Below are positions 34,483 to 62,749 of a stretch of 64,000 nt of DNA, piece by piece. Every line of letters starts with the position of its first letter. The stretch's first letter is position 1. A program made the translations under genes and the position numbers. This DNA comes from a virus. Lineage: Duplodnaviria > Caudoviricetes. The notes under the pieces are model-generated. The model did not search any database, was not told the origin of the DNA, and saw only the letters and a list, made by a program, of their open reading frames with translations. The stretch covers positions 1 to 64,000 of the IMG/VR virus record IMGVR_UViG_3300028048_000080, one strand, 5' to 3'.

Positions 34483-34490
34483 GCTCTCTC

Positions 34491-43386: not shown

Positions 43387-43417
43387 AAAAAGTATCAGCA
43401 CGATACTTTTTCAAAAA
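43387..43417. repeat. 31-bp palindromic element, copy 1
   Basis: AAAAAGTATC-AGCAC-GATACTTTTT-CAAAAA, identical to 52351..52381. Confidence 0.95.
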
Positions 43418-43441
43418 AATAACGCCACCCGAAGGTGACGT
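43413..43441 (-). terminator. intrinsic terminator with C(UUCG)G loop
   Basis: ACGTCACC-TTCG-GGTGGCGT-TATTTTTTT just after the stop of the 2960-aa gene. Confidence 0.85.
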
Positions 43442-43446
43442 GTAAA

Positions 43447-46400
43447 TTATGCTACGCCGATAGCGTGAGCTACCATACGATTAACTTGTAGCTGAGATAA
43501 ACTGTTGCCTACCGAAGTGCTCAGGTTAACGTTGACTGAACCAGTCTGAGGAGTCAGTCCGCTGGCCGCGTTGGAGATGGCATCCACCGCTGCCTGCTGT
43601 CCTTGGCCAGTTTGAGCGTTAATGTTGATAACGTAGCCTGAGGATGGGCCACCGCGCATTACGTTCAGATTGGAGTCGGATAATGACATCTGCTGCATGG
43701 CAATCTGATCCCCTTGGTCATTAGACATCTGCATCGCCTGAGTCTGAGCCGGAGTAGGAACATCGTGCTCTACCGAGGGGCCGGAAGCGTAGCCGGCAGT
43801 CATGAGCCCGGCAGCTATCCCGATTGCCGCGGCTATAGCTTTTCCTCCGGCTCCGCCGATGGGCGCAATATCGAGCATGCGTCCGAAAGATTTCCCGGCG
43901 CTTTCGGCCGTATCTTGCACTACGGCGCGTCGATAACGAGCGTTACGGTTCCTGGAGGCCGCTTCAGCCATCTGCTGTGCCGCATCTTCAGCGTTCTTAT
44001 GTATCGCCGTTGAAGTAGCGTTATCCAAGTCGTTAAAAGCTCCGCTGACTCCGGCTTCAGCATTCATATCATTTAATACCTGAGCTGTTTTGCCGAGTTG
44101 ACTATCTACCGAGTGACTGGAACGATAATTGAGTGGATCGGAGGCTTTTAAACCTGAGGCAGAAATACCCGTCATTAAAAGTTTTTGTTCTTTCTGGTCG
44201 ATGGTAGTGTTGCGCACGATATCACCAAAAAGCTTAGTGGTATTTTCGATAAGCTCATCGGTGTCGCCAAGCATGGCTGAACGCGGGCCAAATTCCTTTT
44301 TAGCTCTGTCCTTAAATACGCCGCCTACAAATGTTTGAAGAGCACTTGCCGCTTCTTCACGGTTTTCTCCCGTATACATTGCTTTTACGGCATCGCCCCA
44401 TACCTTCTGCAGTTCCTCAGCTCGTTTTAAGTCCGTTTCGCCGCGGGCGTTTTTACCGGTGAGAGCACCTTCCTGTAGAGCCATTAGACCGATAAGAACT
44501 TCGGCGTTTTCTTTACCCGTAAGCTTAGCTTGAGAATGAGCTATACGAGAGAATTCGAATAAGCTCTTATTCATAATACCGGCTGCTTTCTTAGAAGCCG
44601 CTTCGGTAAAACGTTCATCCATGCCCATCTGCCATTTACGATAATGCAGGGCTTCATCAAAGGCGGCGGCTTCTTCTTTGCCGTAGTTTTGAGCTACGAA
44701 GTTACCCATTCGCTGAACATAAAGAGCTTCATCTTTGGCCGCTCCTTTCTCAGCATCCCAGATTTTTTCAAAGTCTTCCGCGTGGCTGGTCTTATAATTT
44801 TCATTCAGCTGATCTAACAGGGCTTTATTGGTTTTTATTTCTTCCTCGGTGTATTTCTTTTCGAAGTTAACCAGTCGGTCACCATCGTAAGTATATTCCG
44901 TAAGGTTGCTAACACCGTAGGAATCATCGGCGATATGTTTCCCGTCTTTCCCCCAGTGAGATTCCTGAGGCTGGCCATACGGCGTAATATCTACCGCGTT
45001 GCGTACCATGCCCGCCTTAGCTTCTATGAAGTTATCATCGAGCAGTTTAACGTTCGTACCTTCCATGGCGCTTAAAGCACGATACGCGGCGAAGTCGACT
45101 TGGGCACGTACGGTGCGTCCATCAGCGTAAGTAATTTCGGCTTCACTCTTACGGATCATCGCGTTGATCTTATCGGAGTCATAGTCACCGTTCTGCTGGC
45201 GGAACGTCTTTAAGTTGGTACGGAATTCATCTCGACCGAGAATATCGCTAAAGTGCATATTGACGGCTTGAACCGGGTCACGAGAAACCAACGGATAACG
45301 CTGATCTACCGCGATAGTACCCTCTTTATCTAATACGCCGAGAGTCTTTTCTTTCAGCTGCTTAGCCAGTTTTTTATCGCCGCCAGCCATCTGCTCGAAC
45401 ATCTCGTCGGAATAGATAGCGTCTCTATGCTGCGTGCTGGCAAATAAGAAGCCGAGATCCATACCACTACCCTTTAAGACAGCATCTTTGGCGTTTCGGA
45501 TGTCGGCCAGTTCAGTGAATGATTTCCCGGAATCAAGGAATTTGGCATTGCCAAAAGCGCCATCTAATCCGTCGCCGAGGAACTGGAACCCCTGTGCCGT
45601 GCCGTACATGGTGCCATCCGAAATAACCGTAGTGGACGCCCGTTTGAACGTGCCGTTTTTATCGGTAGCTTCCTGCGCAACCATCGAACGGAGTTTCTCT
45701 GTCTCACGCATCAGTTCACTGCGCCGCTTCTCGTTAATATCTTGTCCGCCGCCGCGATGATTCTCATACTCGCTCGTGTACTGGTCATGCAGGCGCGTTA
45801 CGCGAGCTACCTGGCGCTGCAGCTCACTCTTACGAGCCGCGCCGGTGCTGTCTTCCTGCTGCAGCGCGGAGAATGGCAAGGCAATGGTGCGGTCACGATC
45901 CGACGTATATATCTGGCCATCTATTAAAGAGTTGGAATGCAAGTCAAGAACAATGGCCTGTCCATACAATGATTCAGCGAATTTATCATCAGTTTTATGG
46001 ATGCGAGCGTTGGTACGGAGGTCGTCGATAGACAAGCTGGTAAAGCCCAGGTTGTTCATTTCTTCCAACGAGTATTTATGACTGCGATTATATTCATGCG
46101 CGTTGGTCGAACTATTAGCTTCGATGAGGTCTAAGACTCTATTGGCGGTAGCATCTTGTACGTTGGACTTCTTCAGAGCATTAATGGCTCTCTGCGCAGT
46201 CTTTTTGTCGACCCCTTGCTCTTTGAGCCATGCCATGCCCTCTTCAGCGGTTTGGGCAGTTTCTCCGTTTTTCAGAATATGCTCAGCCCCTTGTACGCCT
46301 TTCCCCTCGTGAACGAAAGTGTCTTTCATAAAGTCATCGACGAGAGTCTGGTAGGCCAAGTCGCCATCTTTTTTAGACTTGGTAAAATCTTGGATAGCTC

Positions 46401-49400
46401 TTGAGAAGGCCGTGTCGCCGAACGCATCGGATATAGCCGTGGAAGATTTATCTATATAGTCCTTCGTATATACGGTGCTCTTCAAAGCATCAATAGTACG
46501 TTCATCTGCTTTGAAAGTGGATCTGTCTCCAGACTTACCGTAGTTATAGTTAGGCAGGACTCTAACCTGAGTGCGGGCGACTTCGTACATTACGTCGCCA
46601 TATTTGGTGGAAAGCTGGTGCATGGAATCGTGCCAGCCATCTTTGCCGCCAAAATATTTTTCCGTAACTTTGTTTAAGCCTTTAGTGCTAAGATGGCTGT
46701 CGTCAGTTACGAATTCTGCCCATTTTTTACCGTCAGTATCTTCATGGATTTTGATGCCTTTCATGGCACCGTTTTTCTCCATGATGTCCTTGGCTTCTTC
46801 TATGGAAAAACCCTTAAGATCGATTAATCCGTTAAACGTAGCTTCGAATGCGGAAGGGCCACCATGTTTTTTATGACCGGCCGCCGTATGACCGAACATG
46901 TCAATAGCTTCTTTTATGCCTATATCTCTTAGAGCTTCGTCCATAACGGTATTGGTACGGTAACGCTCTTCGAGTAAAGCGGAAGCAAACTTCGCCACAC
47001 CGCCAAAATTCTTGTTAATAATTTCTTCTATCTTGGCGTCGTTAAGAGCTAATAGTCGTTCACGCTTGGCTTTGTCTTTTTCCGCCATCGCTTTGCTGAG
47101 CGTCAGACCATGAACGAAAGCGGCAAATCCCGTACCTTTTACGGTTCCGGTATCAAACAATTCTTGAATAAAGTCGACGTGAATTTGCCGGCCGATAAGC
47201 TTTTCTGCGTTCAGCTCTTTTAATGTGGAAGCGATTTTCTTGTCGACTTCTTGTGAACCTTGGCCAAGCCCGTTCATCAAGACATGGCTCATCTGTTTTT
47301 CGCTATAGTCGGTCAGCTTAGTGTGGCCATCTATATCCAGGCTTTTAACGTAGAAGTCGTGAGAGAACGGCGAATTTTCCTTAGAGAAAAGCGCCCAGGC
47401 AGCCTGCTCGCGCTCAGCCCCCGTAAGAGATTTGTTAATATTCTGGTTGATATAATCGCTTACGGCCTCATCGGTCATTTCTTGACCGTTTTTAAAGATG
47501 CCTGACCTTAAAAGCCCTGTCTGCTTAGCCCTTACGGTTTCGTCTTTATACGTAGCGCTATTAGAAGCTTTAGTAAACAGTTCTTCTCCAGATTCTACGT
47601 ATACGCCTGCGTTCGATTCATAATGGGCCATACCGTCGGCGTCAAAAGTAATTTTGCCCTGAGCTTTCAATAGCTTTTCGAAATTACGGCTATTTTCGAT
47701 ATCGGAGCGGGCAATTTTGCCGAAAGCAACATGCTGTTCAAAATGCTCGGAGGTTAATCCGGCATCTGCGGCGCGGGCCGAAATGGCGCCCGATGCTTCA
47801 TCCGTAAAGATGGACATCATCTGACGATATTCGAAGGAGTCCTCGCCCAGCTTATCGGCAGCATATCGCATTAAGCGGCGCATACTTTCCGAATCAGCGG
47901 AGAGCTTATTGACCACCATGGTGTCGGCAACGTTATGGCCAAGCTTCTCGGAAATAGCATTCATATGCATGTGTTCCTGCATGGATTCGAATGCTGCTCC
48001 AAAACGTACGCCACGGCCTTCCATGATTTTTGCGGCGCGTTCTACATTGAACGGGATGGCCCTATCCATCTTAGTAGAAATATGGTTAAGGTCTTTGTCA
48101 TAGGACATTAATCCGCGATAACTGTCGGATAGAATATTTACCTGACCACGGGTGTCACCGGCATGGCTCAGGATATCCTGAAAAGCGCCTGTGGTGTCGC
48201 CTTCAAAGAGGTCGAGAAATTCTGCGCGCCCAGAGTCAATACTATCGACGATATACGGAGTCAAAATATGCAGTGTGCGCATATATGCTGCCGCGAGAGA
48301 ACTCGATGCATTCTTTAACGAATTGATTTCATCGACTCTTTTAGCGTGTTTAATACCTTCATCGCCGATTTTCTCCAAGTGCTCAATCATGATATCGGCA
48401 GCCTGCGTACCTTCGTCGCGAAGTTTTTGTATTATCTCTTTGCGGTCTTTTTGCCCTATCGTATGTAAAGTTTCGTCTATATTAATAACGTTAGCGAGAT
48501 TACGGTCTTGGCGGTCGCCAAAATAATCAGCTGAGTGCTGCCGATATCTCGCGCTTCGCATTCCGAAAATGCCTGATACTTCTTCGGCAAGATTACCGTT
48601 TTCCCTTCCGCGGTTGAACATGAAGTTCATTAGGTTCTCGCCATCTCTAGCGAGACGACCTTCTTCCGTGGTATAAATTAAAGCGTTGTGCTTGGAAGAA
48701 TAATAGAGGCCTACTTCGTCGCCGAACTCTTGTCCGTTAGCCAGGCGGCGCTTAAAAGTACCGTTGGAAAATACGTTGCGGTCAAGACCGATTACGGTGT
48801 AGTTATTAGCCCTTACATCCTGCGCCGTATTATAGACCCAGAACTGGCCATAATCTTTGTTATAGCCTATAGCGCCGCCGTGAGAATAAATGCCGCCAAT
48901 AATCTGTTCAAGCATTTCTTGGCTGGCGCCGTAGCGGGCACGCTGCATCTTGTAAATCTTACGCGCGTCTCTCTCACTATAACCAGCGGTGTCTACCAGC
49001 TTCTGGATAAACTCCTGCTCTTCTTTTTCGGTTCCTTGCGATACATCGAAGCCGTTATTGAAAACTATGTTTTTATTAATGTCAGAAGCGACGCCCTTGG
49101 CCCAAGCTAGAAAATCCTGCCCTTCCTTGGACTCTTTTTTCCAAACAGGTTTACCGTTTTCAGCAACAGGCTTGAAACTAGTAGCAACCTGAAAATCGAT
49201 GCCGGTAGCTTTGGAACTAACGGCGAGAATCTCATCGTCCGTCAAACCGCCGTTAACCAAGTTGTCGATAATATCGAACTGCTCGGTGGTAGACAATATG
49301 CCAGCCCATACATTACGTTTTCTTCTTTCACGCATTAAATGAGTGATCTTGCCGCCGGCGATAGCAGCAGTGTCGTTTTCAATATCGACGAGATATTCTT

Positions 49401-52329
49401 GCCCGCGACCATCGGCGATGTCATCCAGTTTTATAATCCCTTGATCCAAGAGACGCTGTTGAAAGTTAGCCAAGAGAGTAAGTTTTTCATCTTCTTGAGC
49501 GTGCTCTATTTCGTTAGCGGAACGTCCCATTTGCCGCATCAAAGATTTGACTACGCCGTAATCAGCGTTGATATCGATTGAAGCCATAGTGCTTCCGGAC
49601 AAAGATTTAACCCCGTAGAATCCTTCGATATCCACTTGGAACTTATTCAGTTCGCTGGCAACGCGGGGAAGGACTTGATAACCTGCGCCGGCCTTGCCGA
49701 CTTTTTCTATAGCGGCTTCTTCAAACATATCCCGAATTTCGTGATAAAAGAATTGAGCTCTGTCATCACTTAAGGATATGTCTTTGCCATAATGGTCACG
49801 CACGGCTGTTAAAGAGGCTTTGATTAACCCCTTGTTTGCGCGCGCCCATTTTTCGAGCGACGCCATATTCTCCATCGTGTCGGCATAAGCCTTACGTTGT
49901 CCCGTCTCTTTGTCGATATAGCCAAAGTAGTCCTGAAGAGAACCGTCATATTCATTGAATTTAACTTCTACCCCAGAAAGTTGCTTCTCTTCTATCTCTT
50001 TCGTCTTAGCTTTAACCTTATCACGAAATTCTTGGCGAAGATCTTCAATGGTGCTTTCGTCCGCCTGATTTTTTAAAAGCCCTTTTTCCTTCAGCTTTTC
50101 ATTAACATATTTATCCATGTCGTCGACATACTGCATGAGCCTTTCGTCACGACTGGCAATTTTATCACGAGCTTTGCGCCCGGCAGCATCATTAAACGCT
50201 CTATCAGATATTTCCTCTAAATCTTTGAGAGAAGCTGTCTTGTATTTACGGTTGCCCTCAGCGTCTATAACCACCGTGCTAAGCATGTCCCGATATTCTT
50301 GGGGAACATTTTCCATTAAGAATTCTTTGTCGTTCCCCGTTTTTTTAGCACCCGCTAAGGTGAATAAGTTATTAACGGTATCCATAAGATCCTGATACTT
50401 GCCGACCAGAACGATGTCTCGGTGTGCCGAAGCCAACTTAGATTTGGTGTGCGTAGTCCAGCGCATAGCAAACAAGTCTCCGCCAGCCATATTTTCATGA
50501 TTGGAAAGTATAGGCATTAGCGGGGAATCAGATTCTATCTTGGAAATACCTGAAAGCTCGTATAATCCGCGGCGATGTATACCGGGCGCCTGATAAAGTG
50601 CCCGTGCGCCTCCTTTTTCGCCGATAGCTACGCCGTCAGAAGACCACCACTGGTTAGTGTCTTTGTCGAAAGCGAAAGACATTACGCCATGCTTATGCGG
50701 ATCCCAGGTAGAATTATTAGCGAAGAAAAGCTGCGTACTGTTGCCCTTTAATTTAACGGCGTTTTTGGTAGCTTTTTTAGTGATAAACGAATTAGAGGAG
50801 TTAGGGTCATAGAATCCGCTGCCGAATACTACGCGCATAAGGTCGATGGCATCAGCTTCAGCGATATGGGTTTGACCGCTATGGATAGCTTCCGGCGAAA
50901 GACCTTTTTTAATAGCCGTCGCCGCCAGGATTGTCTGCTGAGTTTTAGGAGTCTCTTTCTGCGTTTTCATCCACTTCATGAGCGAATCCGTCTTGTCCTT
51001 GTCGCCCATGTAATTGCTCCAGAACGTATACGGGTCACCCATGTGTTCTTTAGGAAGAACCATTGCGTCGAGAGCGTTATTAAAATGCAGATGGTCGCCG
51101 CCAAGAATGCTACTCATTTCCTTACGGAATGCTTCAGTAGTTAAATCCTTATTATGCAGGAGATAATCGAGCTGAGGAATATCGAAGCGATTGCCATTAT
51201 AGCTTACTGCCGTAAGGTTATTGGCATAAATGTTACGGATGGCCGAGGCAAGCTCTTTTTCCCATCCGAACATTTCGTTGCCTACGCGGGTCTTTTCTTG
51301 GTACTCGCCGACTTCACGGAGAAGATTAGCGCCCTTAATCATTTCTTCTATCGTGCCGTTCGCGCCAGTTATATCCTTCTGCTCGGAGAAAGAAGAAAAT
51401 CTAACTACACCGTCTTTGGCTTCATCCCAGTTCACGTGCGTATATTTAGCGCCATGCAAAGCGAGACGGTTAAGGGTTACAAGTTCACCTTCTGCCATCT
51501 TTTCGCCACGAGAAAAACGGTCGATGAGGTTAAGCATATTCTTATGCTCTTTGCCGGACAAACCAATAATAGAACCGTAAGTTTTCTTAATATTGAAGTC
51601 GCCCGTCTTAAAATCGCCGAAGCCATCAGAGAAAGAAAACTCGGTAATACGCTGCATCTTATCGTATAACTTATCACCGTGACGACCGAAGGTTTCCAAG
51701 TCGAATGCTACGGCGCGCCCTTTTTGGGCGACGATGTTTTCGACGGCTTTTACTGATTCGTGTGGAGCGCCTTTAGTATAGGGGGTAGTTTTTTGATAGA
51801 TAAAATCGTATCCCGTGGTCTTTCGACTTTTCCCGTAAGTAAAAGCTTTGGAAAAAGTACGCACATTAAGACCCGAATACAATTTAACTAACTGCTCGTC
51901 AATTTTAGGAAATTCACTGAACTTCCTGACGGCTGCGTGTGGAACCACTATAGTAGCGCCTTGCGGTTGAGCTAAGTCAGCTATACGATACGCCAAGAAA
52001 GGAGCTATACTATGGTTTTCTTGCAGAGCAAGTTTTTTCCGCATTCGCTCCAACTCGCCACTGTGTTTTTCTCTCCACCAATTCCGATCTTGATTGTATA
52101 GCCAGACACTATTGTCTAAGTCTTTGATGATATCGGCATCGGCTTCGTCGCCTATATCCTTAAAAAATTTTAAGCTTTCTTGTTGTTCGTGAAAAAGATC
52201 TCTTTCGATGTGTTGTCTAGCATGTTTTCGCTCGTCCATCTTTTTTTGGAACGATTCCGAATTAGTAAATTTATTTAATTCAGCCTGCATACGAGCCTGC
52301 CGTCTTGCGTTGTCGCTGAAAAATGCCAT
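43447..52329 (-). CDS. putative single-chain two-barrel (virion) RNA polymerase fused to an N-terminal DEDDh 3'-5' exonuclease, 2960 aa
   Basis: Exonuclease motifs FDLET (D210,E212), YNGNRFD (D383), HIAEAD (H488,D493). Beta-like DEASGAISARA, GVYVESGEELFTK...KDETVR and KLTDYSEK. Beta'-like QRYP (R2344) and NGDYDSD (2380-2386). Confidence 0.75.
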   Translation of the reverse strand: MAFFSDNARRQARMQAELNKFTNSESFQKKMDERKHARQHIERDLFHEQQESLKFFKDIGDEADADIIKDLDNSVWLYNQDRNWWREKHSGELERMRKKLALQENHSIAPFLAYRIADLAQPQGATIVVPHAAVRKFSEFPKIDEQLVKLYSGLNVRTFSKAFTYGKSRKTTGYDFIYQKTTPYTKGAPHESVKAVENIVAQKGRAVAFDLETFGRHGDKLYDKMQRITEFSFSDGFGDFKTGDFNIKKTYGSIIGLSGKEHKNMLNLIDRFSRGEKMAEGELVTLNRLALHGAKYTHVNWDEAKDGVVRFSSFSEQKDITGANGTIEEMIKGANLLREVGEYQEKTRVGNEMFGWEKELASAIRNIYANNLTAVSYNGNRFDIPQLDYLLHNKDLTTEAFRKEMSSILGGDHLHFNNALDAMVLPKEHMGDPYTFWSNYMGDKDKTDSLMKWMKTQKETPKTQQTILAATAIKKGLSPEAIHSGQTHIAEADAIDLMRVVFGSGFYDPNSSNSFITKKATKNAVKLKGNSTQLFFANNSTWDPHKHGVMSFAFDKDTNQWWSSDGVAIGEKGGARALYQAPGIHRRGLYELSGISKIESDSPLMPILSNHENMAGGDLFAMRWTTHTKSKLASAHRDIVLVGKYQDLMDTVNNLFTLAGAKKTGNDKEFLMENVPQEYRDMLSTVVIDAEGNRKYKTASLKDLEEISDRAFNDAAGRKARDKIASRDERLMQYVDDMDKYVNEKLKEKGLLKNQADESTIEDLRQEFRDKVKAKTKEIEEKQLSGVEVKFNEYDGSLQDYFGYIDKETGQRKAYADTMENMASLEKWARANKGLIKASLTAVRDHYGKDISLSDDRAQFFYHEIRDMFEEAAIEKVGKAGAGYQVLPRVASELNKFQVDIEGFYGVKSLSGSTMASIDINADYGVVKSLMRQMGRSANEIEHAQEDEKLTLLANFQQRLLDQGIIKLDDIADGRGQEYLVDIENDTAAIAGGKITHLMRERRKRNVWAGILSTTEQFDIIDNLVNGGLTDDEILAVSSKATGIDFQVATSFKPVAENGKPVWKKESKEGQDFLAWAKGVASDINKNIVFNNGFDVSQGTEKEEQEFIQKLVDTAGYSERDARKIYKMQRARYGASQEMLEQIIGGIYSHGGAIGYNKDYGQFWVYNTAQDVRANNYTVIGLDRNVFSNGTFKRRLANGQEFGDEVGLYYSSKHNALIYTTEEGRLARDGENLMNFMFNRGRENGNLAEEVSGIFGMRSARYRQHSADYFGDRQDRNLANVINIDETLHTIGQKDRKEIIQKLRDEGTQAADIMIEHLEKIGDEGIKHAKRVDEINSLKNASSSLAAAYMRTLHILTPYIVDSIDSGRAEFLDLFEGDTTGAFQDILSHAGDTRGQVNILSDSYRGLMSYDKDLNHISTKMDRAIPFNVERAAKIMEGRGVRFGAAFESMQEHMHMNAISEKLGHNVADTMVVNKLSADSESMRRLMRYAADKLGEDSFEYRQMMSIFTDEASGAISARAADAGLTSEHFEQHVAFGKIARSDIENSRNFEKLLKAQGKITFDADGMAHYESNAGVYVESGEELFTKASNSATYKDETVRAKQTGLLRSGIFKNGQEMTDEAVSDYINQNINKSLTGAEREQAAWALFSKENSPFSHDFYVKSLDIDGHTKLTDYSEKQMSHVLMNGLGQGSQEVDKKIASTLKELNAEKLIGRQIHVDFIQELFDTGTVKGTGFAAFVHGLTLSKAMAEKDKAKRERLLALNDAKIEEIINKNFGGVAKFASALLEERYRTNTVMDEALRDIGIKEAIDMFGHTAAGHKKHGGPSAFEATFNGLIDLKGFSIEEAKDIMEKNGAMKGIKIHEDTDGKKWAEFVTDDSHLSTKGLNKVTEKYFGGKDGWHDSMHQLSTKYGDVMYEVARTQVRVLPNYNYGKSGDRSTFKADERTIDALKSTVYTKDYIDKSSTAISDAFGDTAFSRAIQDFTKSKKDGDLAYQTLVDDFMKDTFVHEGKGVQGAEHILKNGETAQTAEEGMAWLKEQGVDKKTAQRAINALKKSNVQDATANRVLDLIEANSSTNAHEYNRSHKYSLEEMNNLGFTSLSIDDLRTNARIHKTDDKFAESLYGQAIVLDLHSNSLIDGQIYTSDRDRTIALPFSALQQEDSTGAARKSELQRQVARVTRLHDQYTSEYENHRGGGQDINEKRRSELMRETEKLRSMVAQEATDKNGTFKRASTTVISDGTMYGTAQGFQFLGDGLDGAFGNAKFLDSGKSFTELADIRNAKDAVLKGSGMDLGFLFASTQHRDAIYSDEMFEQMAGGDKKLAKQLKEKTLGVLDKEGTIAVDQRYPLVSRDPVQAVNMHFSDILGRDEFRTNLKTFRQQNGDYDSDKINAMIRKSEAEITYADGRTVRAQVDFAAYRALSAMEGTNVKLLDDNFIEAKAGMVRNAVDITPYGQPQESHWGKDGKHIADDSYGVSNLTEYTYDGDRLVNFEKKYTEEEIKTNKALLDQLNENYKTSHAEDFEKIWDAEKGAAKDEALYVQRMGNFVAQNYGKEEAAAFDEALHYRKWQMGMDERFTEAASKKAAGIMNKSLFEFSRIAHSQAKLTGKENAEVLIGLMALQEGALTGKNARGETDLKRAEELQKVWGDAVKAMYTGENREEAASALQTFVGGVFKDRAKKEFGPRSAMLGDTDELIENTTKLFGDIVRNTTIDQKEQKLLMTGISASGLKASDPLNYRSSHSVDSQLGKTAQVLNDMNAEAGVSGAFNDLDNATSTAIHKNAEDAAQQMAEAASRNRNARYRRAVVQDTAESAGKSFGRMLDIAPIGGAGGKAIAAAIGIAAGLMTAGYASGPSVEHDVPTPAQTQAMQMSNDQGDQIAMQQMSLSDSNLNVMRGGPSSGYVININAQTGQGQQAAVDAISNAASGLTPQTGSVNVNLSTSVGNSLSQLQVNRMVAHAIGVA

Positions 52330-52350
52330 GAAAATATCCCCTCTCTATAC

Positions 52351-52381
52351 AAAAAGTATCAGCACGATACTTTTTCAAAAA
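52351..52381. repeat. 31-bp palindromic element, copy 2
   Basis: Identical to 43387..43417 and in the same orientation; lies between the GGTAAT motif and the SD of the 2960-aa gene. Confidence 0.95.
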
Positions 52382-52399
52382 CGTCTTTTCTAAATATAG

Positions 52400-52405
52400 A
52401 TTACC
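52400..52405 (-). promoter_or_regulatory. putative late promoter core GGTAAT
   Basis: GGTAATCTATATTTAG upstream of the 2960-aa gene. Confidence 0.6.
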
Positions 52406-52419
52406 GATAACGGGCAAAG

Positions 52420-52444
52420 AAAAACCCTGGATTATTCCAGGGTT
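52420..52444 (-). terminator. intrinsic terminator
   Basis: AACCCTGGA-ATAA-TCCAGGGTTTTT overlapping the stop of the 2195-aa gene. Confidence 0.85.
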
Positions 52445-55400
52445 AATAAGAGCTCTGCATAGATAGAGAGTTTTCGACCATCTTCTGTTCGTGACGCATA
52501 CCCATCATCTGTTTAACAGCGGCCCATATGGTAGTACCGCCGCCGGTAGGTCCGGCTTCCACGGAAATGTCGACACCTTTAAGTCCGGCGCCCTTGAGCA
52601 CATCTTCCATGTAGTTTTTTACGGCGGCTTCATTATGGTCACGGCCGCCACCTCGGAAGTTTACCGTAGGAGCGTTGATTACTTTTTCATCTCTGACTTG
52701 AGAATCGTAGTAGCCAAAGTCCGAAAGATTCATCGCTTCGTTTTCGATGGTCTTAACCTCAATATTATTCAAATCATACTGAGGAGCCCATCCTGCCCAG
52801 TTGGCTACGGGCAGTTCATGCTTAGCGAAAAATGTTTCATTATCTTCCTGCTCGTCCACCGTCTGTCCCCAGGCAAGCTGCAGAGCTTTACGTAGGAACG
52901 GTGAAACCTTATTGAGAATAACGTTACGTTTATCTGGATTGACTTCTTTAACAAATTCCATGAAGTATTCACGATCATTCGTCGGAAGGGCGGTAACTAT
53001 TTGTGACCATGAAGAATTCTCGTCCAAAGCATACATGGTTGCGTCAGCCGCTTTCTTATAAAGAAGCGCGGTGCGCGTCCATTCGCCGCCCGGAAGAATC
53101 ATAGTGTCTCCTTCGAGATCGGCTATCTTAGCATTGAGCTTCTTCATCAGCTCGTCGCGCTGAGTGCTTGGACGGGAATTCTGTTGAAGTTTCTTCTTCA
53201 TGCTCTTGTACTTGCTAAGAGCCTTCTGGTTCTTCTCCGCTTTCTCTTGCTGAAGCTCTATGACGTCTTCGAGATCGACGTCTTCTTCTTCCTTGGCTTT
53301 TTCAGCGGCGGCATGGAATAATCCTTCGTACTTCAGATAGGTTAGTCTATCGAAGTAATCTTGCATCTCCCATTTTTCTTTAGTGCGTTCAGGAATCCAG
53401 TCACCGTTAGGGTTTTTCTTTCCGTGGTAGAGCATACCAGCCGCCGCGCCAATAGCGCCGTATATCGCACGGGTCTTGCCGTTCTTTTCGAAGAAACGCC
53501 CTACTTCCTGCCCGATATTGGCCATAGACAACGCTTCATCGACATAGCTGTTACCGCCGGTTGCGGCATGAGCTAAAGTCATCGCGGTACTGCCGTAGCG
53601 CGACCAATTCATACGGGTTCTTTCATCCAGCCCCATGGCATTACCGAGAACGTTACCGATGAAAGCGCCGCGATCGCCAAAGATAAACGCGTATGCGCCG
53701 GCATGCTTCATCCACGGAGAAGCACCTTCAAAATCGCGGGTAAAACGATAAACATTGCCGAGCATGCCAGTAAAAGCGCTGCGGTCATGTGCTGCACGTT
53801 CTAAAGCGGGCATCAGGATGGAATTAATAGGATGTTCCCATGACTGATATGGCGTACCGTATACCTGCTCTGCATCATACGACTCAAGAGGAGAACGTAC
53901 TCGTAAGAACTGGTCGGAAAGCCATGGGATATCCATATGGGCGATATACTCTGAACCCCATGCTACCATCTTCTGCACGGGGCCGTAATTAGCCAACGTT
54001 GCCGCCGCCGACGTATCACCTTTACGTATAGACGCATCGCCATTCTTAATCATTTCTTGGCCGATATTCATACCGTCAGCGAATACGGCGGCATTTAACG
54101 TGCCTTGAGCATCTTTGTTTTTACGAGCGTACTCATCTTCGTCTACCGCTACCGTTACAGTTTCGCCTACGTGAATATAACGATTCAAGACTTCTTGCGC
54201 GCTTTCCTGTGCATTGGCTTTTAAGTGAGCGCCGGCTATCTTGAATATGCGGTTGCCCGAACGGAACTTGCCGTACCCCATGACTTCTGATACGACTACC
54301 TGTTGGTATTCCAGCCCTTTACCTACTACCTTATAATCGTAGAAATCATGTTTTTTACCTTGCTGATTTACTCGGTCACGAATCTCGTCCATCTCGTCGA
54401 TAAGTGCCGGGTCAGTAATGGTCTTTTTGGCTATGTCGCGCCATAGACGATATTCGGGAGAAAACGGCGCGATATCAGCCAGTATTTTCATACGGTCAAA
54501 AGCGCCGTATTCGCCGTACTGGTCAGGATGCAACTCATTAAGTGATTCATATCCTTTACCCGGGAGACGCATTTCGCCTTTTTGAATTTGCGTGAAGGGA
54601 TCGCCGAATCTGAAACGTTCAGGGAGCCAATCAGGCATGGTATTCATAAGTGGATTATTTCTTGGCCCACGGCGATAATCGGGAACGAAACGACGAGCTA
54701 TTTCTGCTGCTGCGCCGCCCAAACCACCGAGATTTTCATCCCAGAAGGTACGGGAGAACGAAGTCATATCCTGCCCCGTAGCGATACGCTCCATATCATC
54801 GACGCCGAATCCGGTAGCGGCACCGAGAGCGTAACCGTAGATACCTGAAATCAAACGCCAGGATACGGCGGCATTTTCTACTACGCCCGCACCTTTAGTC
54901 TGGTTTATCAGCTGAGTTACGGCATCCGGGTCACTCAAGAAATCCATTGCTTGAGACGGGCGATAAGACTTCAGCTTGTCGCCGTGAATCATCGTCTCGT
55001 CTTCATCTACTCCGTAAGGCGAAACGGTTTTACCTGACTCAGCTTTACGGGAAGCAGTTACGGAAGCGAGCATTCTTCTGGGATTTACTTTAGAAGCAAG
55101 AGCGGAGAGTTCTCCCCACGCATGTGTGCTATGCATTGGATCAATGCCTCTTGCGACATCTTCCAACATATTGCCATGGACGAGCCCGTCAACTACGTCG
55201 TTGCGCGGCAGCATATCCGTTAACTCATCGTACAAAGTCTCTCCGACCAGCTCGTTATACAAAAGCTTATCTTCCGCAGAAATCTTTACATGCTGTTTTT
55301 GCGTGGTTATGACGGTACCATTGCCTTTGTCATCCGTTGCGATGACCGACCCCTGTTTCGGAGGAGGACCACCGAAGAGTTTGTAATCTATCGCTTCGAA

Positions 55401-58400
55401 GAAACCTATATGGGTAGAGCCGATATCATCGAGAACCTTTTCGGTCTTAACTCCTTTACCTAGCCCACCACCGCCAGTCGGCATCTTATCTAATGGATAT
55501 ACGCCGTATACGCCAGGGTCAACGTCGCCGTACTGTCCACTCTTAAATTGGAACGAAGCGATGCTGGTATCTGATGTCGGTGCGTCAAACATATCCAGGG
55601 TTACGGGATCAAAATCCATGCCGTTTACCTGAATATAGTTACGGTGGCCTATATCGCGAGCTTTCTGCTTAATGTTCTGCGTGATACCATACAGCAATGC
55701 TTTAGGGTCTACGCCGTTAATATTGCGATAGTCGAACCCAAGGAAAGTGTTGAGACTTTTTTGAGGTTTGATTAATTCGCCTATAGTAGGATTTAATACC
55801 GCGCCCCATGGAGTACCGTCGGCAAACATATGACCGGTCAGCTCATAAGGTCTGTCCTCTTTATGCTTCTCTTCTAACCAATACGGATCTAATATTCCGG
55901 CTATGGGAGAAAATGGATTGGTAGGCGTCGGCAAAAGGCTGTGCGACCATTTATCCCAGTAGCCATCGTAAAGAGCCTTGTCTTTCCAATCGGATTGGAT
56001 ACGACGAGCAAACGTAGGCTCCCAATAGGATATCTCTGCGCCGCGGGCTTCGTTTACGCCGCCGAATGTCCACCATGCACCTTTGCGTACGGGAGTGTAT
56101 CCTTTCTGATACCATTCACGCCGTTCATCGGCGTTCATGAAGTCATCGTGATCGCCCCAGTATTGCATTATAGGGTTAATAGCCTTTTCGCCTTTGAGCC
56201 AATCGGTTAAACCGATGGTATCCAAAACTTTGCGGCCGGCAATATCGAATTCCGCTACGCCTTGAGCCATAGCTCCAGACATGGACATACCCGTTATCTC
56301 TTCGGATGTATCATCCATCCATTCAAGATAAGTAGCTCCTACGGCCACGGGGAGAATGCGTTTGGTAAACATCGCCGTGAGCATATCCGTAGCACTGCCC
56401 ATGTTATCCTTGGAGAAACCTAATCCAACTTTATTCATTTCGTCGGACAAACGGGATAAGAAGAAATATGGAACGTACGTAGCGTTGGTAACATCACCCA
56501 TATTGCCGCGGCCGGCAGTAAACTGTTTTCCGAACTGCTTAGCCGTATCCATGAAACGGCCTTCGGTTACGCTGGTAAGAAGGTCTGTTACATGTACCGT
56601 TTTACGTTGAGTAACGAACTGGTTATACGGCAGCGGATTAGCTATCTCATCTGCCTGCATATATGGCGTGTCGAAGAGATGTTCATTTTCGGCGGCCATA
56701 TTAGCCAGGTCTTCCTGAAATTGCTTATCCATTTGTTCGTTGCTGCTGGATAATGCGCTGCTGACAGATCTTAACGCTTTCCATTCATCTTCTCTGGTGA
56801 AAGAGTTTTCTTCAGACATTCTTAGCGCATCTTCAAGATAAGTCAGATCATTCAATCGATGAGCGTTTATGCGTTCCGCGTCTTCCAGCCCAGCCGCGTT
56901 TATTTTGTCCAACGCTTTGGCATAATCAGGTTTTGAAGAACCATCGCGCGCCATCTGAGCGAAAGCTTCGCGACTAAACAAGTTGCGTAAGTACTCTTTT
57001 GCATCTTCCGTATAATTGCCGGGTTCGGTATTGGGTAAATCAAGGACGCTGGTAGAAAGATTTAATTTTTCTTTGGCTACTTTCTGAACGATATGGGAAT
57101 TGAGACTGTGGATATTGCCACGCGCCTTACGGGCCAGATCATTCAATTCGCCGATGGCATAAGTGTCGTCTCCGCTCTGCATAAGGAGCTCAAGCATAGA
57201 TTCGTAATCGTCTTTGACCAAATACTCCAGCATGGTGCGCGCAGGAGTTTTACCTTCGTTAGCCAAGAGCCGTTCAGCACTTAACGAATCAATGCCGTAA
57301 GTATGATTGCGAAGATTATCGCGGATAACGTCTACGCGATCGTGATAGCTATCAAGCCATTCATCAGAAACCAGTTTTTTATCATATTTTTGAAGTCCAA
57401 GAATGTCGGCGTCTTCTATAGTAGGATTGAGCATATCGCGGGCAGCCGTGGGGAAATAATCCAGATTGCTCCCCTTATTAGCCCAGGCATTGTATTTTTC
57501 AGCGAATTTAAAGCCGCTGAATTCATCGCGTCCTTGTCCTATATCAAAAAAACTAGTAAACCAGTTGCCACCTTTTTTGTAGCGTACGTTGCCGGACATT
57601 TGCTGATGCATATGCTTGCGTGGGCCGAATCTGCCGGAAACGAATTCTGTCTCGATACCCTGCATTTCTTTGGCGAGTTCGATCTTATCGTCGCCGACTC
57701 TATACCAGTCGCCCATAACGTAGAGCATATTGCTGTCAATTACGTTAGTCTTTCTATTATCGGCGGCGTTAGATAATGCCGCGAGGCCAGGATCTATAGA
57801 ACCTTTCGCCGCAAAATGAATATTGGGCATTACGCGGTCGAGAGATGCCTCGCGCATCTTAAAGATTTTGCCGGGAAGCGTATTCGCGAAACTGGATACC
57901 AGTTCATCCATAAACTTACGACTATCGTGGAGGCTATACATGTTGCCTCTCGCATCCATGCGCAGCACGTCAGCGTCAGGCGTTAAATCCAGGAATCTCT
58001 GCTCCTTAGACTCTTTCATGTAGCGGTCGTAAGCTTTGGTGCCCTTCTTGGCGTTCTTATTTAACCCCGCCTGCTTATCCAGTTCTTCGAAGTACAGGCG
58101 AGCATCTTCGATATCGTCAAGCGGGCTGTAGTTCGTGCCTCGATTTTCGCCATTTACCTGGTAATGGTTGACAGAAGTTTTATCTTTATTAGCCAGAATT
58201 TCACGGTTGCTTACGCCGCGGCCACCGGTAACCCTATCCTTTATGCTTAGATTTCTAACGGTACCGAAGCGTTTTTCCATTCGGTCGAGGTTATATGCAG
58301 ATTCGTTAACCTGTTCGGCGAGCTTCTGGCTGAAATCGTCAACATATTTTTTACGCGCTTGCTTGTTGTCAACATAACGCATATAGCGAAGCATTGTATC

Positions 58401-59030
58401 GATATTTTTATCTTCCAGGAGGCCAAGCTCTTTCCTGGCTTTTCTGACATCTCTTCTGTTACGGACATTGGATACAATCTTCTGCATGAATTCATAGCGC
58501 TTGGCTATTTGGTTTTCCGAATACTGTGCCCCAAAATGCTTTGTAAACTGGTTTATGGAGTGATTCAATATATCCTGTCGCCAGCTCGCTTGAGCCATGC
58601 TCTTAAATCCGGAAGCGTTAGCCTGACGAAGTTCGCTCATTAGGCCGAATAAATTGCGCTGGTCATACGGATCTAAGTGCAACGGAGCAGTCTTGGCTTT
58701 CTCCCAAGATTCTTCCCACGCACTCTTGCCATCGCTTTTAAGGCGGCGAATATCGCTTATCGTCCAATCGCCGAAATCACGTTTAAATACCGTGCTCTTG
58801 CCTAAACGAGAAGCGAAACGGGCACTAAAATTTAAGCCCCGCGAAATAGCAGGGCTGAGGCCAGATCGATGCGCCAGAACGGTGCCGGCAGCACCGGCCG
58901 CTCCATAATAGGCGTTATCCGTTATGAATTTACTAACTGAGCTAAAAAAGCCTTTACCTTCATTTTCACGGGCTTTGTTTCGCTCAGCCTGTTCCTGTCT
59001 TTGCTTTCTTGCTGCTTCTTCTGGCGTCAT
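52443..59030 (-). CDS. tape-measure-like / ejection protein with degenerate SNase-like domain, 2195 aa
   Basis: Directly follows two tail chaperones; largely helical with several Gly/Ala-rich hydrophobic segments; SNase-like segment at about 54035..54303. Confidence 0.55.
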   Translation of the reverse strand: MTPEEAARKQRQEQAERNKARENEGKGFFSSVSKFITDNAYYGAAGAAGTVLAHRSGLSPAISRGLNFSARFASRLGKSTVFKRDFGDWTISDIRRLKSDGKSAWEESWEKAKTAPLHLDPYDQRNLFGLMSELRQANASGFKSMAQASWRQDILNHSINQFTKHFGAQYSENQIAKRYEFMQKIVSNVRNRRDVRKARKELGLLEDKNIDTMLRYMRYVDNKQARKKYVDDFSQKLAEQVNESAYNLDRMEKRFGTVRNLSIKDRVTGGRGVSNREILANKDKTSVNHYQVNGENRGTNYSPLDDIEDARLYFEELDKQAGLNKNAKKGTKAYDRYMKESKEQRFLDLTPDADVLRMDARGNMYSLHDSRKFMDELVSSFANTLPGKIFKMREASLDRVMPNIHFAAKGSIDPGLAALSNAADNRKTNVIDSNMLYVMGDWYRVGDDKIELAKEMQGIETEFVSGRFGPRKHMHQQMSGNVRYKKGGNWFTSFFDIGQGRDEFSGFKFAEKYNAWANKGSNLDYFPTAARDMLNPTIEDADILGLQKYDKKLVSDEWLDSYHDRVDVIRDNLRNHTYGIDSLSAERLLANEGKTPARTMLEYLVKDDYESMLELLMQSGDDTYAIGELNDLARKARGNIHSLNSHIVQKVAKEKLNLSTSVLDLPNTEPGNYTEDAKEYLRNLFSREAFAQMARDGSSKPDYAKALDKINAAGLEDAERINAHRLNDLTYLEDALRMSEENSFTREDEWKALRSVSSALSSSNEQMDKQFQEDLANMAAENEHLFDTPYMQADEIANPLPYNQFVTQRKTVHVTDLLTSVTEGRFMDTAKQFGKQFTAGRGNMGDVTNATYVPYFFLSRLSDEMNKVGLGFSKDNMGSATDMLTAMFTKRILPVAVGATYLEWMDDTSEEITGMSMSGAMAQGVAEFDIAGRKVLDTIGLTDWLKGEKAINPIMQYWGDHDDFMNADERREWYQKGYTPVRKGAWWTFGGVNEARGAEISYWEPTFARRIQSDWKDKALYDGYWDKWSHSLLPTPTNPFSPIAGILDPYWLEEKHKEDRPYELTGHMFADGTPWGAVLNPTIGELIKPQKSLNTFLGFDYRNINGVDPKALLYGITQNIKQKARDIGHRNYIQVNGMDFDPVTLDMFDAPTSDTSIASFQFKSGQYGDVDPGVYGVYPLDKMPTGGGGLGKGVKTEKVLDDIGSTHIGFFEAIDYKLFGGPPPKQGSVIATDDKGNGTVITTQKQHVKISAEDKLLYNELVGETLYDELTDMLPRNDVVDGLVHGNMLEDVARGIDPMHSTHAWGELSALASKVNPRRMLASVTASRKAESGKTVSPYGVDEDETMIHGDKLKSYRPSQAMDFLSDPDAVTQLINQTKGAGVVENAAVSWRLISGIYGYALGAATGFGVDDMERIATGQDMTSFSRTFWDENLGGLGGAAAEIARRFVPDYRRGPRNNPLMNTMPDWLPERFRFGDPFTQIQKGEMRLPGKGYESLNELHPDQYGEYGAFDRMKILADIAPFSPEYRLWRDIAKKTITDPALIDEMDEIRDRVNQQGKKHDFYDYKVVGKGLEYQQVVVSEVMGYGKFRSGNRIFKIAGAHLKANAQESAQEVLNRYIHVGETVTVAVDEDEYARKNKDAQGTLNAAVFADGMNIGQEMIKNGDASIRKGDTSAAATLANYGPVQKMVAWGSEYIAHMDIPWLSDQFLRVRSPLESYDAEQVYGTPYQSWEHPINSILMPALERAAHDRSAFTGMLGNVYRFTRDFEGASPWMKHAGAYAFIFGDRGAFIGNVLGNAMGLDERTRMNWSRYGSTAMTLAHAATGGNSYVDEALSMANIGQEVGRFFEKNGKTRAIYGAIGAAAGMLYHGKKNPNGDWIPERTKEKWEMQDYFDRLTYLKYEGLFHAAAEKAKEEEDVDLEDVIELQQEKAEKNQKALSKYKSMKKKLQQNSRPSTQRDELMKKLNAKIADLEGDTMILPGGEWTRTALLYKKAADATMYALDENSSWSQIVTALPTNDREYFMEFVKEVNPDKRNVILNKVSPFLRKALQLAWGQTVDEQEDNETFFAKHELPVANWAGWAPQYDLNNIEVKTIENEAMNLSDFGYYDSQVRDEKVINAPTVNFRGGGRDHNEAAVKNYMEDVLKGAGLKGVDISVEAGPTGGGTTIWAAVKQMMGMRHEQKMVENSLSMQSSY

Positions 59031-59045
59031 CTTCTAACCTCTCTT

Positions 59046-59867
59046 TTACCAGCCAGGACGAAGTGCCGGAGAACGATCATCAACGTCATCCTGAGCAAGG
59101 CCGTCGATACCGCCCATCTCCATAACACTGTCGTTAGCGAACTGCGGGAATTTCTTCAGGAACTCTGCGCGTTCCTTCATTTTCTCCGGGGTGAGCTTAG
59201 ATGCTCGTTCACCGCCCCGAATAGTTTTTCCGCTGTCGTCTTTTTTCTTTTTCCGGGCTTTTTCTTCTTTTTGTATTTGGGGTCTATCCCCCATACCCAC
59301 GTCGTCCGTTCTATAGTGTTCATTGTTTCCACCTGCTACGCCAAATTCAATTCCACGAAGGGAATGTAGTTTCCATTCTGCGCGGGATAAATATTTCGTC
59401 GTCTTCTCGACATCCCAGCGCTCAATCTCTTCGATGTCGATATTAGGGAATGCTTCATTGATAATGCAGGTAATCTGATTATCGATATCGTACATTTCGG
59501 CACGATAATACTCGTGAAGCGTTCTACGATGTTCAACGGAATCCAGGAAGCTTTCTTTCAGAATAGCTTTTTCGAGTTCCGTTGGCACACCGGCAGGCAT
59601 ATCGTCCCACTCAATAGTATCTGGGTCAGGGTACAGCAGACACTGCGAGCAGATGATTTCTTCCTTCTTGTAATCATCGAAGCGAGGGTCCTGCAGTATT
59701 TCGCGGTATTCGCTGCGGCCAATGGCACGATAGAAATACACGTTACCATCGAGCTCAATGCCGAATACGTTACGATACTTCTCACACAAATCTACGTAAA
59801 TCTGTGTGAAGTTTATCGGCGCTTTCGGCTCATCAGCTTCCCGCATAATGCGAATTTTATTAGCCAT
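59046..59867 (-). CDS. putative tail assembly chaperone, 273 aa
   Basis: EKYRNVF...YFYRAIGRSEY...CLLYP is paralogous to the upstream 118-aa gene; lies between tube and tape-measure-like genes. Confidence 0.6.
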   Translation of the reverse strand: MANKIRIMREADEPKAPINFTQIYVDLCEKYRNVFGIELDGNVYFYRAIGRSEYREILQDPRFDDYKKEEIICSQCLLYPDPDTIEWDDMPAGVPTELEKAILKESFLDSVEHRRTLHEYYRAEMYDIDNQITCIINEAFPNIDIEEIERWDVEKTTKYLSRAEWKLHSLRGIEFGVAGGNNEHYRTDDVGMGDRPQIQKEEKARKKKKDDSGKTIRGGERASKLTPEKMKERAEFLKKFPQFANDSVMEMGGIDGLAQDDVDDRSPALRPGW

Positions 59868-59870
59868 GTA

Positions 59871-60227
59871 TTACAGCTCCTCAGACTCCGGTAACGGTAG
59901 GAAACCGGAATGAGCCATAATCTCTTCCGCCAACAGATTGGCAAGGCCGGCCTGAGCTTCCAGCATTTCCTCGATGTTTTCAGGATACAGAACGGACGTG
60001 CGGCAAATACCGAGACGACGATTATCCGTACGCTCGATACGCTTTTCTACTACTTCTTCGTCTTCTTCAGAGATATCCGTTTCGAGCATCAGCTGAGTAT
60101 ATTCACTACGGCGAATAGGGCGATAGATAATAGCGTCATTGCCGTTAGCCGTCTTATAAACATGACCGTATTCAGCTTTCCATTCATCAATCTGTGCCTG
60201 AGACACTGCTTCTTTGTCAATTTTCAT
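59871..60227 (-). CDS. putative tail assembly chaperone, 118 aa
   Basis: QIDEWKAEYGHVY...IIYRPIRRSEY...SVLYP...IMAHSGF; acidic; canonical position. Confidence 0.65.
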   Translation of the reverse strand: MKIDKEAVSQAQIDEWKAEYGHVYKTANGNDAIIYRPIRRSEYTQLMLETDISEEDEEVVEKRIERTDNRRLGICRTSVLYPENIEEMLEAQAGLANLLAEEIMAHSGFLPLPESEEL

Positions 60228-62737: not shown

Positions 62738-62749
62738 GCGTATCACCTC

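Follow-up and report, generated by a model that had tools for sequence, protein, structure and literature searches.

A candidate injected RNA polymerase with a predicted fused exonuclease in the tape-measure slot of a jumbo phage of the 0305phi8-36 lineage

The DNA analysed here (the window) comprises the first 64 kb of the 124,580-bp virus record IMGVR_UViG_3300028048_000080, the CheckV completeness of which is 54%. Its gene P0001 encodes a protein of 2960 amino acids (aa) and, as had been claimed in the initial annotation of this DNA, occupies the tape-measure slot; in the reference phage, Bacillus phage 0305phi8-36, the protein of this slot (gp146) is annotated as the tape measure. We propose, with a probability of roughly 0.6, that P0001 is a multi-domain virion protein in the tape-measure slot and is injected carrying an early-transcribing polymerase. 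The parts of this proposal differ in strength. Structural modelling makes it very likely that residues 1551–2750 of P0001 adopt a two-barrel RNA polymerase (RNAP) fold, and gene context and conserved modules indicate that P0001 is probably a virion protein. By analogy with a characterised phage enzyme we lean towards P0001 being an injected early transcriptase, whereas it is rather doubtful that P0001 is a true tape measure.

On the evidence of sequence matches, the phage is a member of the 0305phi8-36 lineage and a jumbo myovirus. The proteins encoded on either side of P0001, P0002 and P0003, match those of the cultured jumbo myoviruses 0305phi8-36, vB_BceM_WH1 (WH1), Edson and vB_BauM_KLEB27-3 (KLEB27-3), all from Bacillus, and of Moorella phage MTATph1; the match to Acinetobacter phage vB_AbaM_ME3 (ME3) is weaker.

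Predicted polymerase and exonuclease and the C-terminal module of P0001

The whole of P0001 gave nothing in Pfam, in PHROGs, by tblastn against 50,697 phage records or in a profile search of PDB sequences, and eight relatives were present in a word-indexed sequence collection. A profile of residues 1551–2750 retrieved 96 representative relatives, nearly all of them 2500–3800 aa long (2485 to 3779 aa). Because nearly all are giants with the matched part at an equal relative place, they are regarded as orthologues. The three aspartates of the DxDxD motif (D2382/2384/2386) and P2346 are kept in all 82 full-length relatives, while at R2344, K1671, E1677 and K1678 the count is 80 of 82 for every residue. 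In a 66-sequence alignment, K1671, E1677, K1678, P2346 and the three aspartates are invariant. The arginine and the aspartates of the first catalytic barrel element, double-psi beta-barrel A (DPBB-A), are 38 residues apart in P0001, a spacing that we take to be like that of NRAP...NADFDGD in beta-prime.

With a 31-sequence alignment, AlphaFold2 predicted the structure of residues 1551–2750 at a predicted local distance difference test score (pLDDT) of 84.0 and a predicted template modelling score (pTM) of 0.81. The model obtained from a 6-sequence alignment was poor (pLDDT 57.8, with disordered active-site loops) and was not used. The accepted model shows a compact, mixed alpha/beta core in which the DxDxD loop lies between beta strands, K1671 and K1678 stand on adjacent strands, and a connector of ~550 residues separates the two barrels. 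All 50 best matches of this model in a Foldseek search of the PDB are RNAP largest subunits; with E values of 2e-3 to 7e-3 and probabilities mostly of 0.8–1.0, they are individually modest yet uniform in kind.

A comparison by VIA-align, which is independent of Foldseek, placed QDE-1 first (Z 9.9, root-mean-square deviation 4.2), with 270 residues aligned over model residues 109–1171 and across both barrels. Pol I, the non-virion RNAP gp62 of P74-26 and vaccinia Rpo147 (8.7 each) came next, followed by Pol II (8.4), by archaeal, plant Pol IV, mycobacterial, AR9, phiKZ and African swine fever virus enzymes, and then by P23-45 gp96 (6.8, 6.5) and phi14:2 gp66 (5.6). About three quarters of the 22 best matches are two-barrel RNAPs, and the 17 RNAP entries lie at Z values from 9.9 to 5.6, which are moderate given a model of 1200 residues. 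The single-chain RNAPs align from model residue 109 on and through both barrels; alignments with the RNAP entries extend to ~1186 and take in the bridge-helix region after DPBB-A.

Among predicted viral structures (BFVD, searched with Foldseek), the best matches include a protein of ME3 (E 2e-5), crAss-like RNAP giants and phi14:2 gp66. Two further predicted structures were matched, one from an uncultured siphovirus (A0A8S5SD80, annotated 'Minor tail protein'; E 2e-5) and the other from Microcystis phage MaMV-DC (uncharacterised; E 9e-5), and they suggest polymerase-like folds in tail-annotated giants of other phage groups.

Taken against the features of the two-barrel RNAP superfamily, P0001 presents a DPBB-A DxDxD motif with its R-x-P strand, two basic residues in DPBB-B and an overall likeness of fold. 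The initial annotation had read the 2960-aa protein as a fusion of an exonuclease and an RNAP (Exo-RNAP), and both the fold prediction and the conservation bear this out. We infer from the conserved residues that the polymerase is catalytic.

The exonuclease of this fusion is predicted to be of the DEDDh type and to lie on the N-terminal side, with its residues conserved across the family. The residues of ExoI (D210/E212), ExoII (N378/F382/D383) and ExoIII (H488/D493) follow each other in DEDDh order and are invariant in 8 sequences; each of them apart from F382 is retained by 90% or more of the 66 aligned sequences. The profile matches are weak (RNase_H_2, E 0.004; RNase_T, E 0.011; a DEDDh-like chain in the PDB, E 0.045), probably because an insert of ~150 residues separates ExoI from ExoII.

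At the other end of P0001, a hydrophobic segment and a tail had been reported, the latter as resembling tape-measure C-termini. The segment was found by a Kyte-Doolittle scan, and a hydrophobic stretch exists at the matching place in 0305phi8-36 gp146, WH1 gp095, KLEB27-3 gp034, ME3 gp036 and CDS31 of the Moorella phage. The tyrosine, isoleucine and asparagine of the tail are nearly invariant in 66 sequences, and its resemblance to tape-measure ends could be demonstrated within the 0305phi8-36 lineage only. The most distant member of the family (P0011) shares the C-terminus and the exonuclease among few common parts, with 30% identity over 135 residues. No other part of the slot protein is conserved as widely as segment and tail together.

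The tape-measure slot in the genome and in the lineage

The structural arm of the genome is a single minus-strand block (genome coordinates 1–87422), and all genes of the examined tail region lie on that strand. The gene order first described for this region (tube, chaperones, 2195 aa, 2960 aa, hub, spike, lysozyme and wedge) is right after small corrections: the tube gene is a tube paralogue, the spike is named by its position, and two further genes belong between lysozyme and wedge (Table 1). Both chaperonins match phrog_29362 and, by BLASTP, WH1 gp097/098. Upstream, the slot of P0001 is flanked by the two chaperonin genes and P0002, and downstream by the hub gene P0003, so that P0001 sits one gene away from the chaperonins. 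A synteny survey showed the order of chaperonins, 2195-aa gene, 2960-aa gene and hub to be kept in six related metagenomic contigs and in 0305phi8-36, WH1, KLEB27-3, ME3 and MTATph1. Every other gene of the structural arm that could be named is structural.

Mobile or additional genes interrupt the otherwise constant module in some relatives. Contig L003 carries an IS605-type Y1 transposase and TnpB between the polymerase gene and the hub gene (L003:19449-20961), and contig L007 has a ParA-like gene pair there (L007:18856-20824), along with an Endonuclease_NS domain fused to a tube-like protein (L007:720-2114). In MTATph1 a transposase interrupts the slot gene (L013:16539-18026).

Table 1. Positions of the features of P0001, its surroundings and the plus-strand polymerase genes
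Feature	Position	Strand	Basis or remark
P0001, 2960 aa, Exo-RNAP	window 43447-52329	-	one open reading frame
Predicted DEDDh (DnaQ/RNase T-type) 3'-5' exonuclease, P0001 ~residues 200-500	window 50830..51732	-	ordered ExoI/II/III motifs
Predicted two-barrel RNA polymerase core, P0001 residues 1551-2750	window 44080..47679	-	AlphaFold2 and structural matches
DPBB-B basic hairpin, K1671 ... E1677-K1678	window 47296..47319	-	conservation; adjacent beta strands in model
DPBB-A catalytic element, R2344-x-P2346 ... G-D2382-x-D2384-x-D2386	window 45172..45300	-	conservation
Gly/Ala-rich hydrophobic segment, P0001 residues 2821-2850	window 43780..43869	-	Kyte-Doolittle mean 1.56
Conserved C-terminal tail GYxINIxA ... 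NxN, proposed hub-docking module	window 43450..43677	-	last ~75 residues
GGTAAT promoter-like motif	window 52400..52405	-	76 nt before P0001 start codon
Terminator-like hairpin and T run after P0002	window 52423..52444	-	
Terminator-like hairpin and T run after P0001	window 43422..43441	-	
Palindromic element, upstream copy	window 52351..52376	-	identical 26-nt core
Palindromic element, downstream copy	window 43387..43412	-	identical 26-nt core
Tube paralogue, 526 aa	window 62750 onward, crosses window end	-	
596-aa protein, no name	window 60956-62746	-	
Tube paralogue, 225 aa	window 60295-60972	-	phrog_9206 (0305phi8-36 tube family ORF140/141) and ORF142/WH1 gp099
Tail chaperonin, 118 aa	window 59871-60227	-	BLASTP E 3e-10, 0305phi8-36 two-gene chaperonin ORF143/144
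Tail chaperonin, 273 aa	window 59046-59867	-	BLASTP E 2e-24, 0305phi8-36 ORF143/144
P0002, 2195 aa	window 52443-59030	-	0305phi8-36 gp145 homologue
P0003, 2829 aa, baseplate hub, gp27/gpD-type	window 34831-43320	-	phrog_20474 E 7e-203; tblastn E 8e-66 to 0305phi8-36 ORF147
123-aa protein, spike by position only	window 34491-34862	-	
Tail lysozyme, 455 aa	window 33154-34521	-	Phage_lysozyme2, E 5e-21
405-aa and 165-aa proteins, no names	window 31920-33137, 31410-31907	-	absent from the initial annotation
Baseplate wedge/gpJ-like protein, 269 aa	window 30597-31406	-	matches 0305phi8-36 ORF151
Tail tube (true), 228 aa	genome 64410-65096	-	just past window end
Sheath, 980 aa	genome 65177-68119	-	just past window end
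Major capsid protein	genome 72392-73648	-	beyond window, structural arm
Portal	genome 76683-78803	-	beyond window, structural arm
Large terminase	genome 81199-82965	-	beyond window, structural arm
P0224, 680 aa	genome 89139-91181	+	outside window; GQQKQG, KYPKM, GMDFDGD
728-aa partner gene	genome 91250-93436	+	outside window; adjoins P0224 (the pair is L009:7139-11436)

The GGTAAT motif upstream of P0001 is, as had been noted, shared with the structural genes. Intergenic sequence makes up 2.5% of the structural arm and contains 9 of the 30 GGTAAT copies on the coding strand (binomial p 3e-8), compared with 0 of 24 on the opposite strand. The longer form GGTAAT(A)nATAT lies 17–76 nucleotides (nt) ahead of nine operon starts of the arm, and the P0001 variant, GGTAATCTA, also precedes the orthologous genes of the related contigs L001, L006 and L007. 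A promoter-like motif, GGTAATAnATAT, stands ahead of operon starts on the structural-arm coding strand only (window 6085, 11949, 18729, 19196, 43362, 52400 and 60279) and differs from the sigma-70 consensus. The 113-nt spacer upstream of P0001 yielded no sigma-70-like promoter. Given the structural-arm motif, the terminators on both sides of the gene and the absence of a sigma-70-like promoter from this spacer, it is reasonable to infer that the P0001 gene is transcribed with the tail genes.

The palindrome core GAAAAAGTATCGTGCTGATACTTTTT has only two copies in the 124.6-kb record, one on each side of the P0001 gene. Upstream of P0001 it comes after the GGTAAT motif, and upstream of the hub gene it comes before it. 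Contigs L001, L003 and L006 have palindromes of other sequence at both flanking places of the orthologue, which points to a conserved hairpin or to a site bound by a dimer.

P0002, the 2195-aa neighbour, matches 0305phi8-36 ORF145 (tblastn E 3e-55) and has more than 264 relatives with 34–92% identity, being conserved far better than P0001. Its invariant W/Y/P/G/R/D/H residues are concentrated at 830–1110, 1380–1750 and 1880–2110, and the intein-free full-length relatives listed are ~2050–2300 aa long. Some relatives carry a LAGLIDADG intein of ~530 aa at the position of residue 1480 (e.g. L006:1771-9882). No match to P0002 was obtained in Pfam, PHROGs or the PDB, and a Kyte-Doolittle scan found no hydrophobic segment. 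There is a weak Atlas lead to SNase (score 0.78), and by eye an SNase-like OB domain may be placed at about residues 1560–1680. In these features P0002 resembles an enzyme, or a structural core with tight packing, more than it does a ruler. The hub P0003 has hydrophobic segments at residues 2359–2398; a short tandem peptide repeat with units like TDDTTQVKA was seen at about residues 1240–1275, and an SNase-like domain was recognised by eye near the N-terminus.

In 0305phi8-36 the corresponding order is sheath, tube, tube paralogue, ORF142, the chaperonins ORF143/144, ORF145 (1930 aa), ORF146 (2537 aa), the hub ORF147 and ORF148 (gpV-like). A two-gene chaperonin was described for this phage, and gp147 was assigned as a gp27-type hub (PMC2147016). 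Hardies et al. 2007 assigned the ruler to gp146 and not to gp145, and found that only the last 60 residues of gp146 align with its BtI1 prophage homologue (PMC2147016). The record (NC_009760) labels gp146 a 'hypothetical tape measure protein' and notes for both gp145 and gp146 'identified as virion protein by mass spectrometry'.

The slot proteins of the cultured phages were compared with sub-profiles taken from the P0001 family. WH1 gp095 matched the exonuclease (E 3e-14), DPBB-A (E 2e-13) and the C-terminal module (E 2e-8) and contains DHDGD; KLEB27-3 gp034 matched the same three (E 6e-13, 1e-12 and 3e-4) and contains DYDGD. On account of these matches, both are clear members of the family. 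ME3 gp036 has R-x-P ... GDHDQD with a weak DPBB-A match, and neither the exonuclease nor the C-terminal module was detected in it by profile. Compared with P0001, these three proteins are shorter (1603–2515 aa), and their polymerase is unannotated, the records giving structural or hypothetical protein. In 0305phi8-36 gp146, the exonuclease profile scored 9.9 bits over residues 1208–1559 and the C-terminal profile 14.3 bits, both exceeding every composition-matched shuffle; there was no DPBB-A match, no DxDxD occurs anywhere, and hhalign of the P0001 family against gp146 gave no match. For the tail, the best of 1000 shuffles reached 9.4 bits for gp146 and 7.6 bits for WH1 gp095, against 23.7 bits for the real gp095. 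Thus gp146 resembles P0001 in its position, its C-terminal hydrophobic segment and tail and its DEDDh-like exonuclease, and differs from it in having no DxDxD, no detectable polymerase and an exonuclease that lies in the middle of the protein. In the split slot gene of MTATph1, CDS27 holds the exonuclease and CDS31 the C-terminal module. Overall, the C-terminal module is found in four of the five cultured slot proteins examined (all but ME3, by profile) and the exonuclease likewise in four of five, whereas the polymerase is present in the P0001 clade, WH1, KLEB27-3 and ME3 and is absent or unrecognisable in 0305phi8-36.

A second polymerase appears to be encoded in the presumed early, plus-strand arm, as a split two-barrel RNAP like RNA-dependent RNA polymerase (RdRP) and YonO. 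The Atlas clusters nearest to P0224, with a score of 0.96 and in 29 of 30 hits, carry the label 'putative RNA dependent RNA polymerase'; 50% of their members have PF05183. P0224 was blank in Pfam, PHROGs and PDB sequence searches, its search of the five cultured relatives gave no match, and a PF05183 search found only 0305phi8-36 orf99; unlike the split gene pair here, the RdRP-like polymerase of 0305phi8-36 is a single gene. The split enzyme is likely the non-virion partner of P0001. When the polymerase region of P0001 was compared with P0224 by hhalign, the DxDxD loop alone was aligned (E 0.049), and an origin of the two polymerases by duplication, in the manner of P23-45, is therefore unsupported.

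A proposed route of delivery and its alternatives

We propose the following course of events. A GGTAAT-type promoter of its own would drive transcription of the P0001 gene alongside the structural genes, and the protein would be incorporated into the tail or baseplate by way of the C-terminal module, which may dock at the gp27-type hub in a tape-measure-like manner. P0001 would exit the particle ahead of, or together with, the DNA, and the hydrophobic segment would place it at the membrane. Its polymerase could then transcribe the first genes of the entering genome, including the split RdRP/YonO-like polymerase of the plus-strand arm, while the exonuclease would probably act on the end of the incoming DNA or on the 3' ends of RNA.

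A number of points weigh against this proposal. The slot protein verified by mass spectrometry, gp146, shares just the exonuclease and the C-terminal module with P0001 and has neither polymerase nor DxDxD, and the polymerase carriers of WH1 and KLEB27-3 are linked to virions by the annotation 'structural protein' alone. For the polymerase part the model predicts a compact globule, with a ~550-residue connector between the barrels, that could not be accommodated in folded form in the lumen of the tail tube; a ruler role therefore needs an unfolded or partly folded state of this part. The chaperonin genes are followed directly by P0002 and not by P0001. The choice of template (DNA or RNA) and of ribo- or deoxyribonucleoside triphosphates (NTP/dNTP) is unreadable from sequence, and the missing part of a record that is ~54% complete could hold other polymerases or a separate tape measure. 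P0001 as a classic helical tape measure throughout was rejected, since residues 1551–2750 form in the model a compact mixed alpha/beta globule and not an extended, mostly helical ruler.

The strongest alternative is that P0001 is an ejected virion polymerase but not a tape measure, in which case P0002 would set the tail length and P0001 would be cargo at the hub, neck or head. Not only the place of P0002 next to the chaperonins and the globular polymerase core favour this, but also the tightly held length of P0002, set against a range of 2485 to 3779 aa for P0001. Tail length points the same way: the initial annotation had proposed a comparison at 0.15 nm per residue, and the 2537 aa of gp146 correspond to 381 nm, a poor fit to the 486 ± 23 nm tail of 0305phi8-36 (PMC1817643). 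However, the unusual conservation of P0002, the intein in some of its relatives and its lack of a hydrophobic segment are all atypical of tape measures, the ruler role was given by Hardies et al. to gp146 rather than gp145 (PMC2147016), and the C-terminus of P0001 is the only lineage-wide conserved part that is placed like a tape-measure end. We consider this alternative unlikely.

The two-barrel enzyme might also be something other than an early transcriptase: a motor that pulls in the ~230-kb genome, a primase-like or RNA-dependent polymerase, or a DNA polymerase proofread by the DEDDh domain. DEDDh exonucleases are the usual partners of DNA polymerases, and the fusion is conserved across the family; the best structural match, QDE-1, copies RNA as well as single-stranded DNA, and two-barrel DNA polymerases (PolD) do exist (PMC10770324). 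Yet the 50 best structural matches are RNAPs and include no chain of PolD, the characterised phage two-barrel enzymes named in the cited papers are all DNA-dependent RNAPs, and the presence of another polymerase gene in the presumed early arm agrees with a scheme of virion and non-virion enzymes, so that we regard such a function as improbable. Finally, P0001 might be unpackaged, a late-expressed non-virion polymerase or nuclease merely encoded among tail genes, as the lack of a polymerase in the verified virion protein gp146 would allow, but this is very improbable in view of the position between chaperonins and hub, which does not vary among the relatives examined, the hydrophobic segment and C-terminal tail held in common with gp146, and the structural nature of all other nameable genes of the arm.

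Returning to P0001 as an injected virion protein, a broader version can be put forward for the whole lineage, though only as a speculation that we think unlikely to hold in full. The slot protein would be a modular carrier of injected enzymes, in which the C-terminal anchor takes an exonuclease, in most branches together with a full RNAP, down the contractile tail while not natively folded. The enzymes might cooperate, the exonuclease preparing the entering DNA end or trimming the 3' ends of RNA so that transcription can start without host factors.

Comparison with known systems

A polymerase borne by a tape measure has been shown experimentally only in Thermus siphoviruses, namely P23-45 and its kin. 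The 5002-aa tape measure gp96 of P23-45 has, in its N-terminal ~1100 residues, a clamp-less two-barrel RNAP (Chaban et al. 2024, PMC10770324; structures PDB 8H2M/8H2N), and this virion RNAP transcribes the pre-early genes, including that of the non-virion RNAP gp64 (PMC10770324). In the literature on a polymerase in the tape-measure slot of a myovirus, only the P23-45 paper was found (PMC10770324), and its supplementary survey omits 0305phi8-36, WH1 and KLEB27-3. What is new here is a sequence-unrelated two-barrel polymerase, predicted together with an exonuclease in the slot of a widespread contractile-tailed jumbo lineage (96 representative clusters). The long-standing labelling of 0305phi8-36 gp146, and of its relatives, as 'tape measure' now reads differently, and the slot orthologues of WH1, KLEB27-3 and ME3 with their polymerase signature make the idea testable at the bench. 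A further question is how such a core, of ~130 kDa, passes through the tail tube. If the broader, lineage-wide speculation is true, delivery of a polymerase through the tail lumen would be a general strategy of long-tailed phages and not an oddity of Thermus phages.

With respect to fold, P0001 is like QDE-1 and phi14:2 gp66 in its predicted single-chain two-barrel arrangement. The gp66 protein is packaged and injected, but by a podovirus and outside any tape-measure context; neither QDE-1 nor gp66 has a fused exonuclease or sequence similarity to P0001.

The closest parallel is with P23-45. Like gp96, P0001 is a giant encoded at the tape-measure locus, with a predicted single-chain two-barrel RNAP inside it and a hydrophobic segment in its C-terminal part, and the genome appears to carry a second two-barrel RNAP, likely of the non-virion type; 181 residues of the folds align at Z 6.8. 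On the other hand, searches of the PDB and of representative sequences gave no sequence similarity between P0001 and gp96. The polymerase is central to C-terminal in P0001 (1551–2750 of 2960) instead of N-terminal, a DEDDh exonuclease is predicted at the N-terminal side, and no metallopeptidase was detected with Pfam. The long connector predicted between the barrels indicates that the core is probably not of the clamp-less flat form. The second polymerase is split into two genes, and the phage is a contractile-tailed jumbo phage, whereas P23-45 is a siphovirus. Membership of P0001 in the gp96 family was rejected on the missing sequence match, the position of the polymerase and the absence of a detected peptidase family; P0001 is an analogue of the P23-45 gp96 family and not a member of it.

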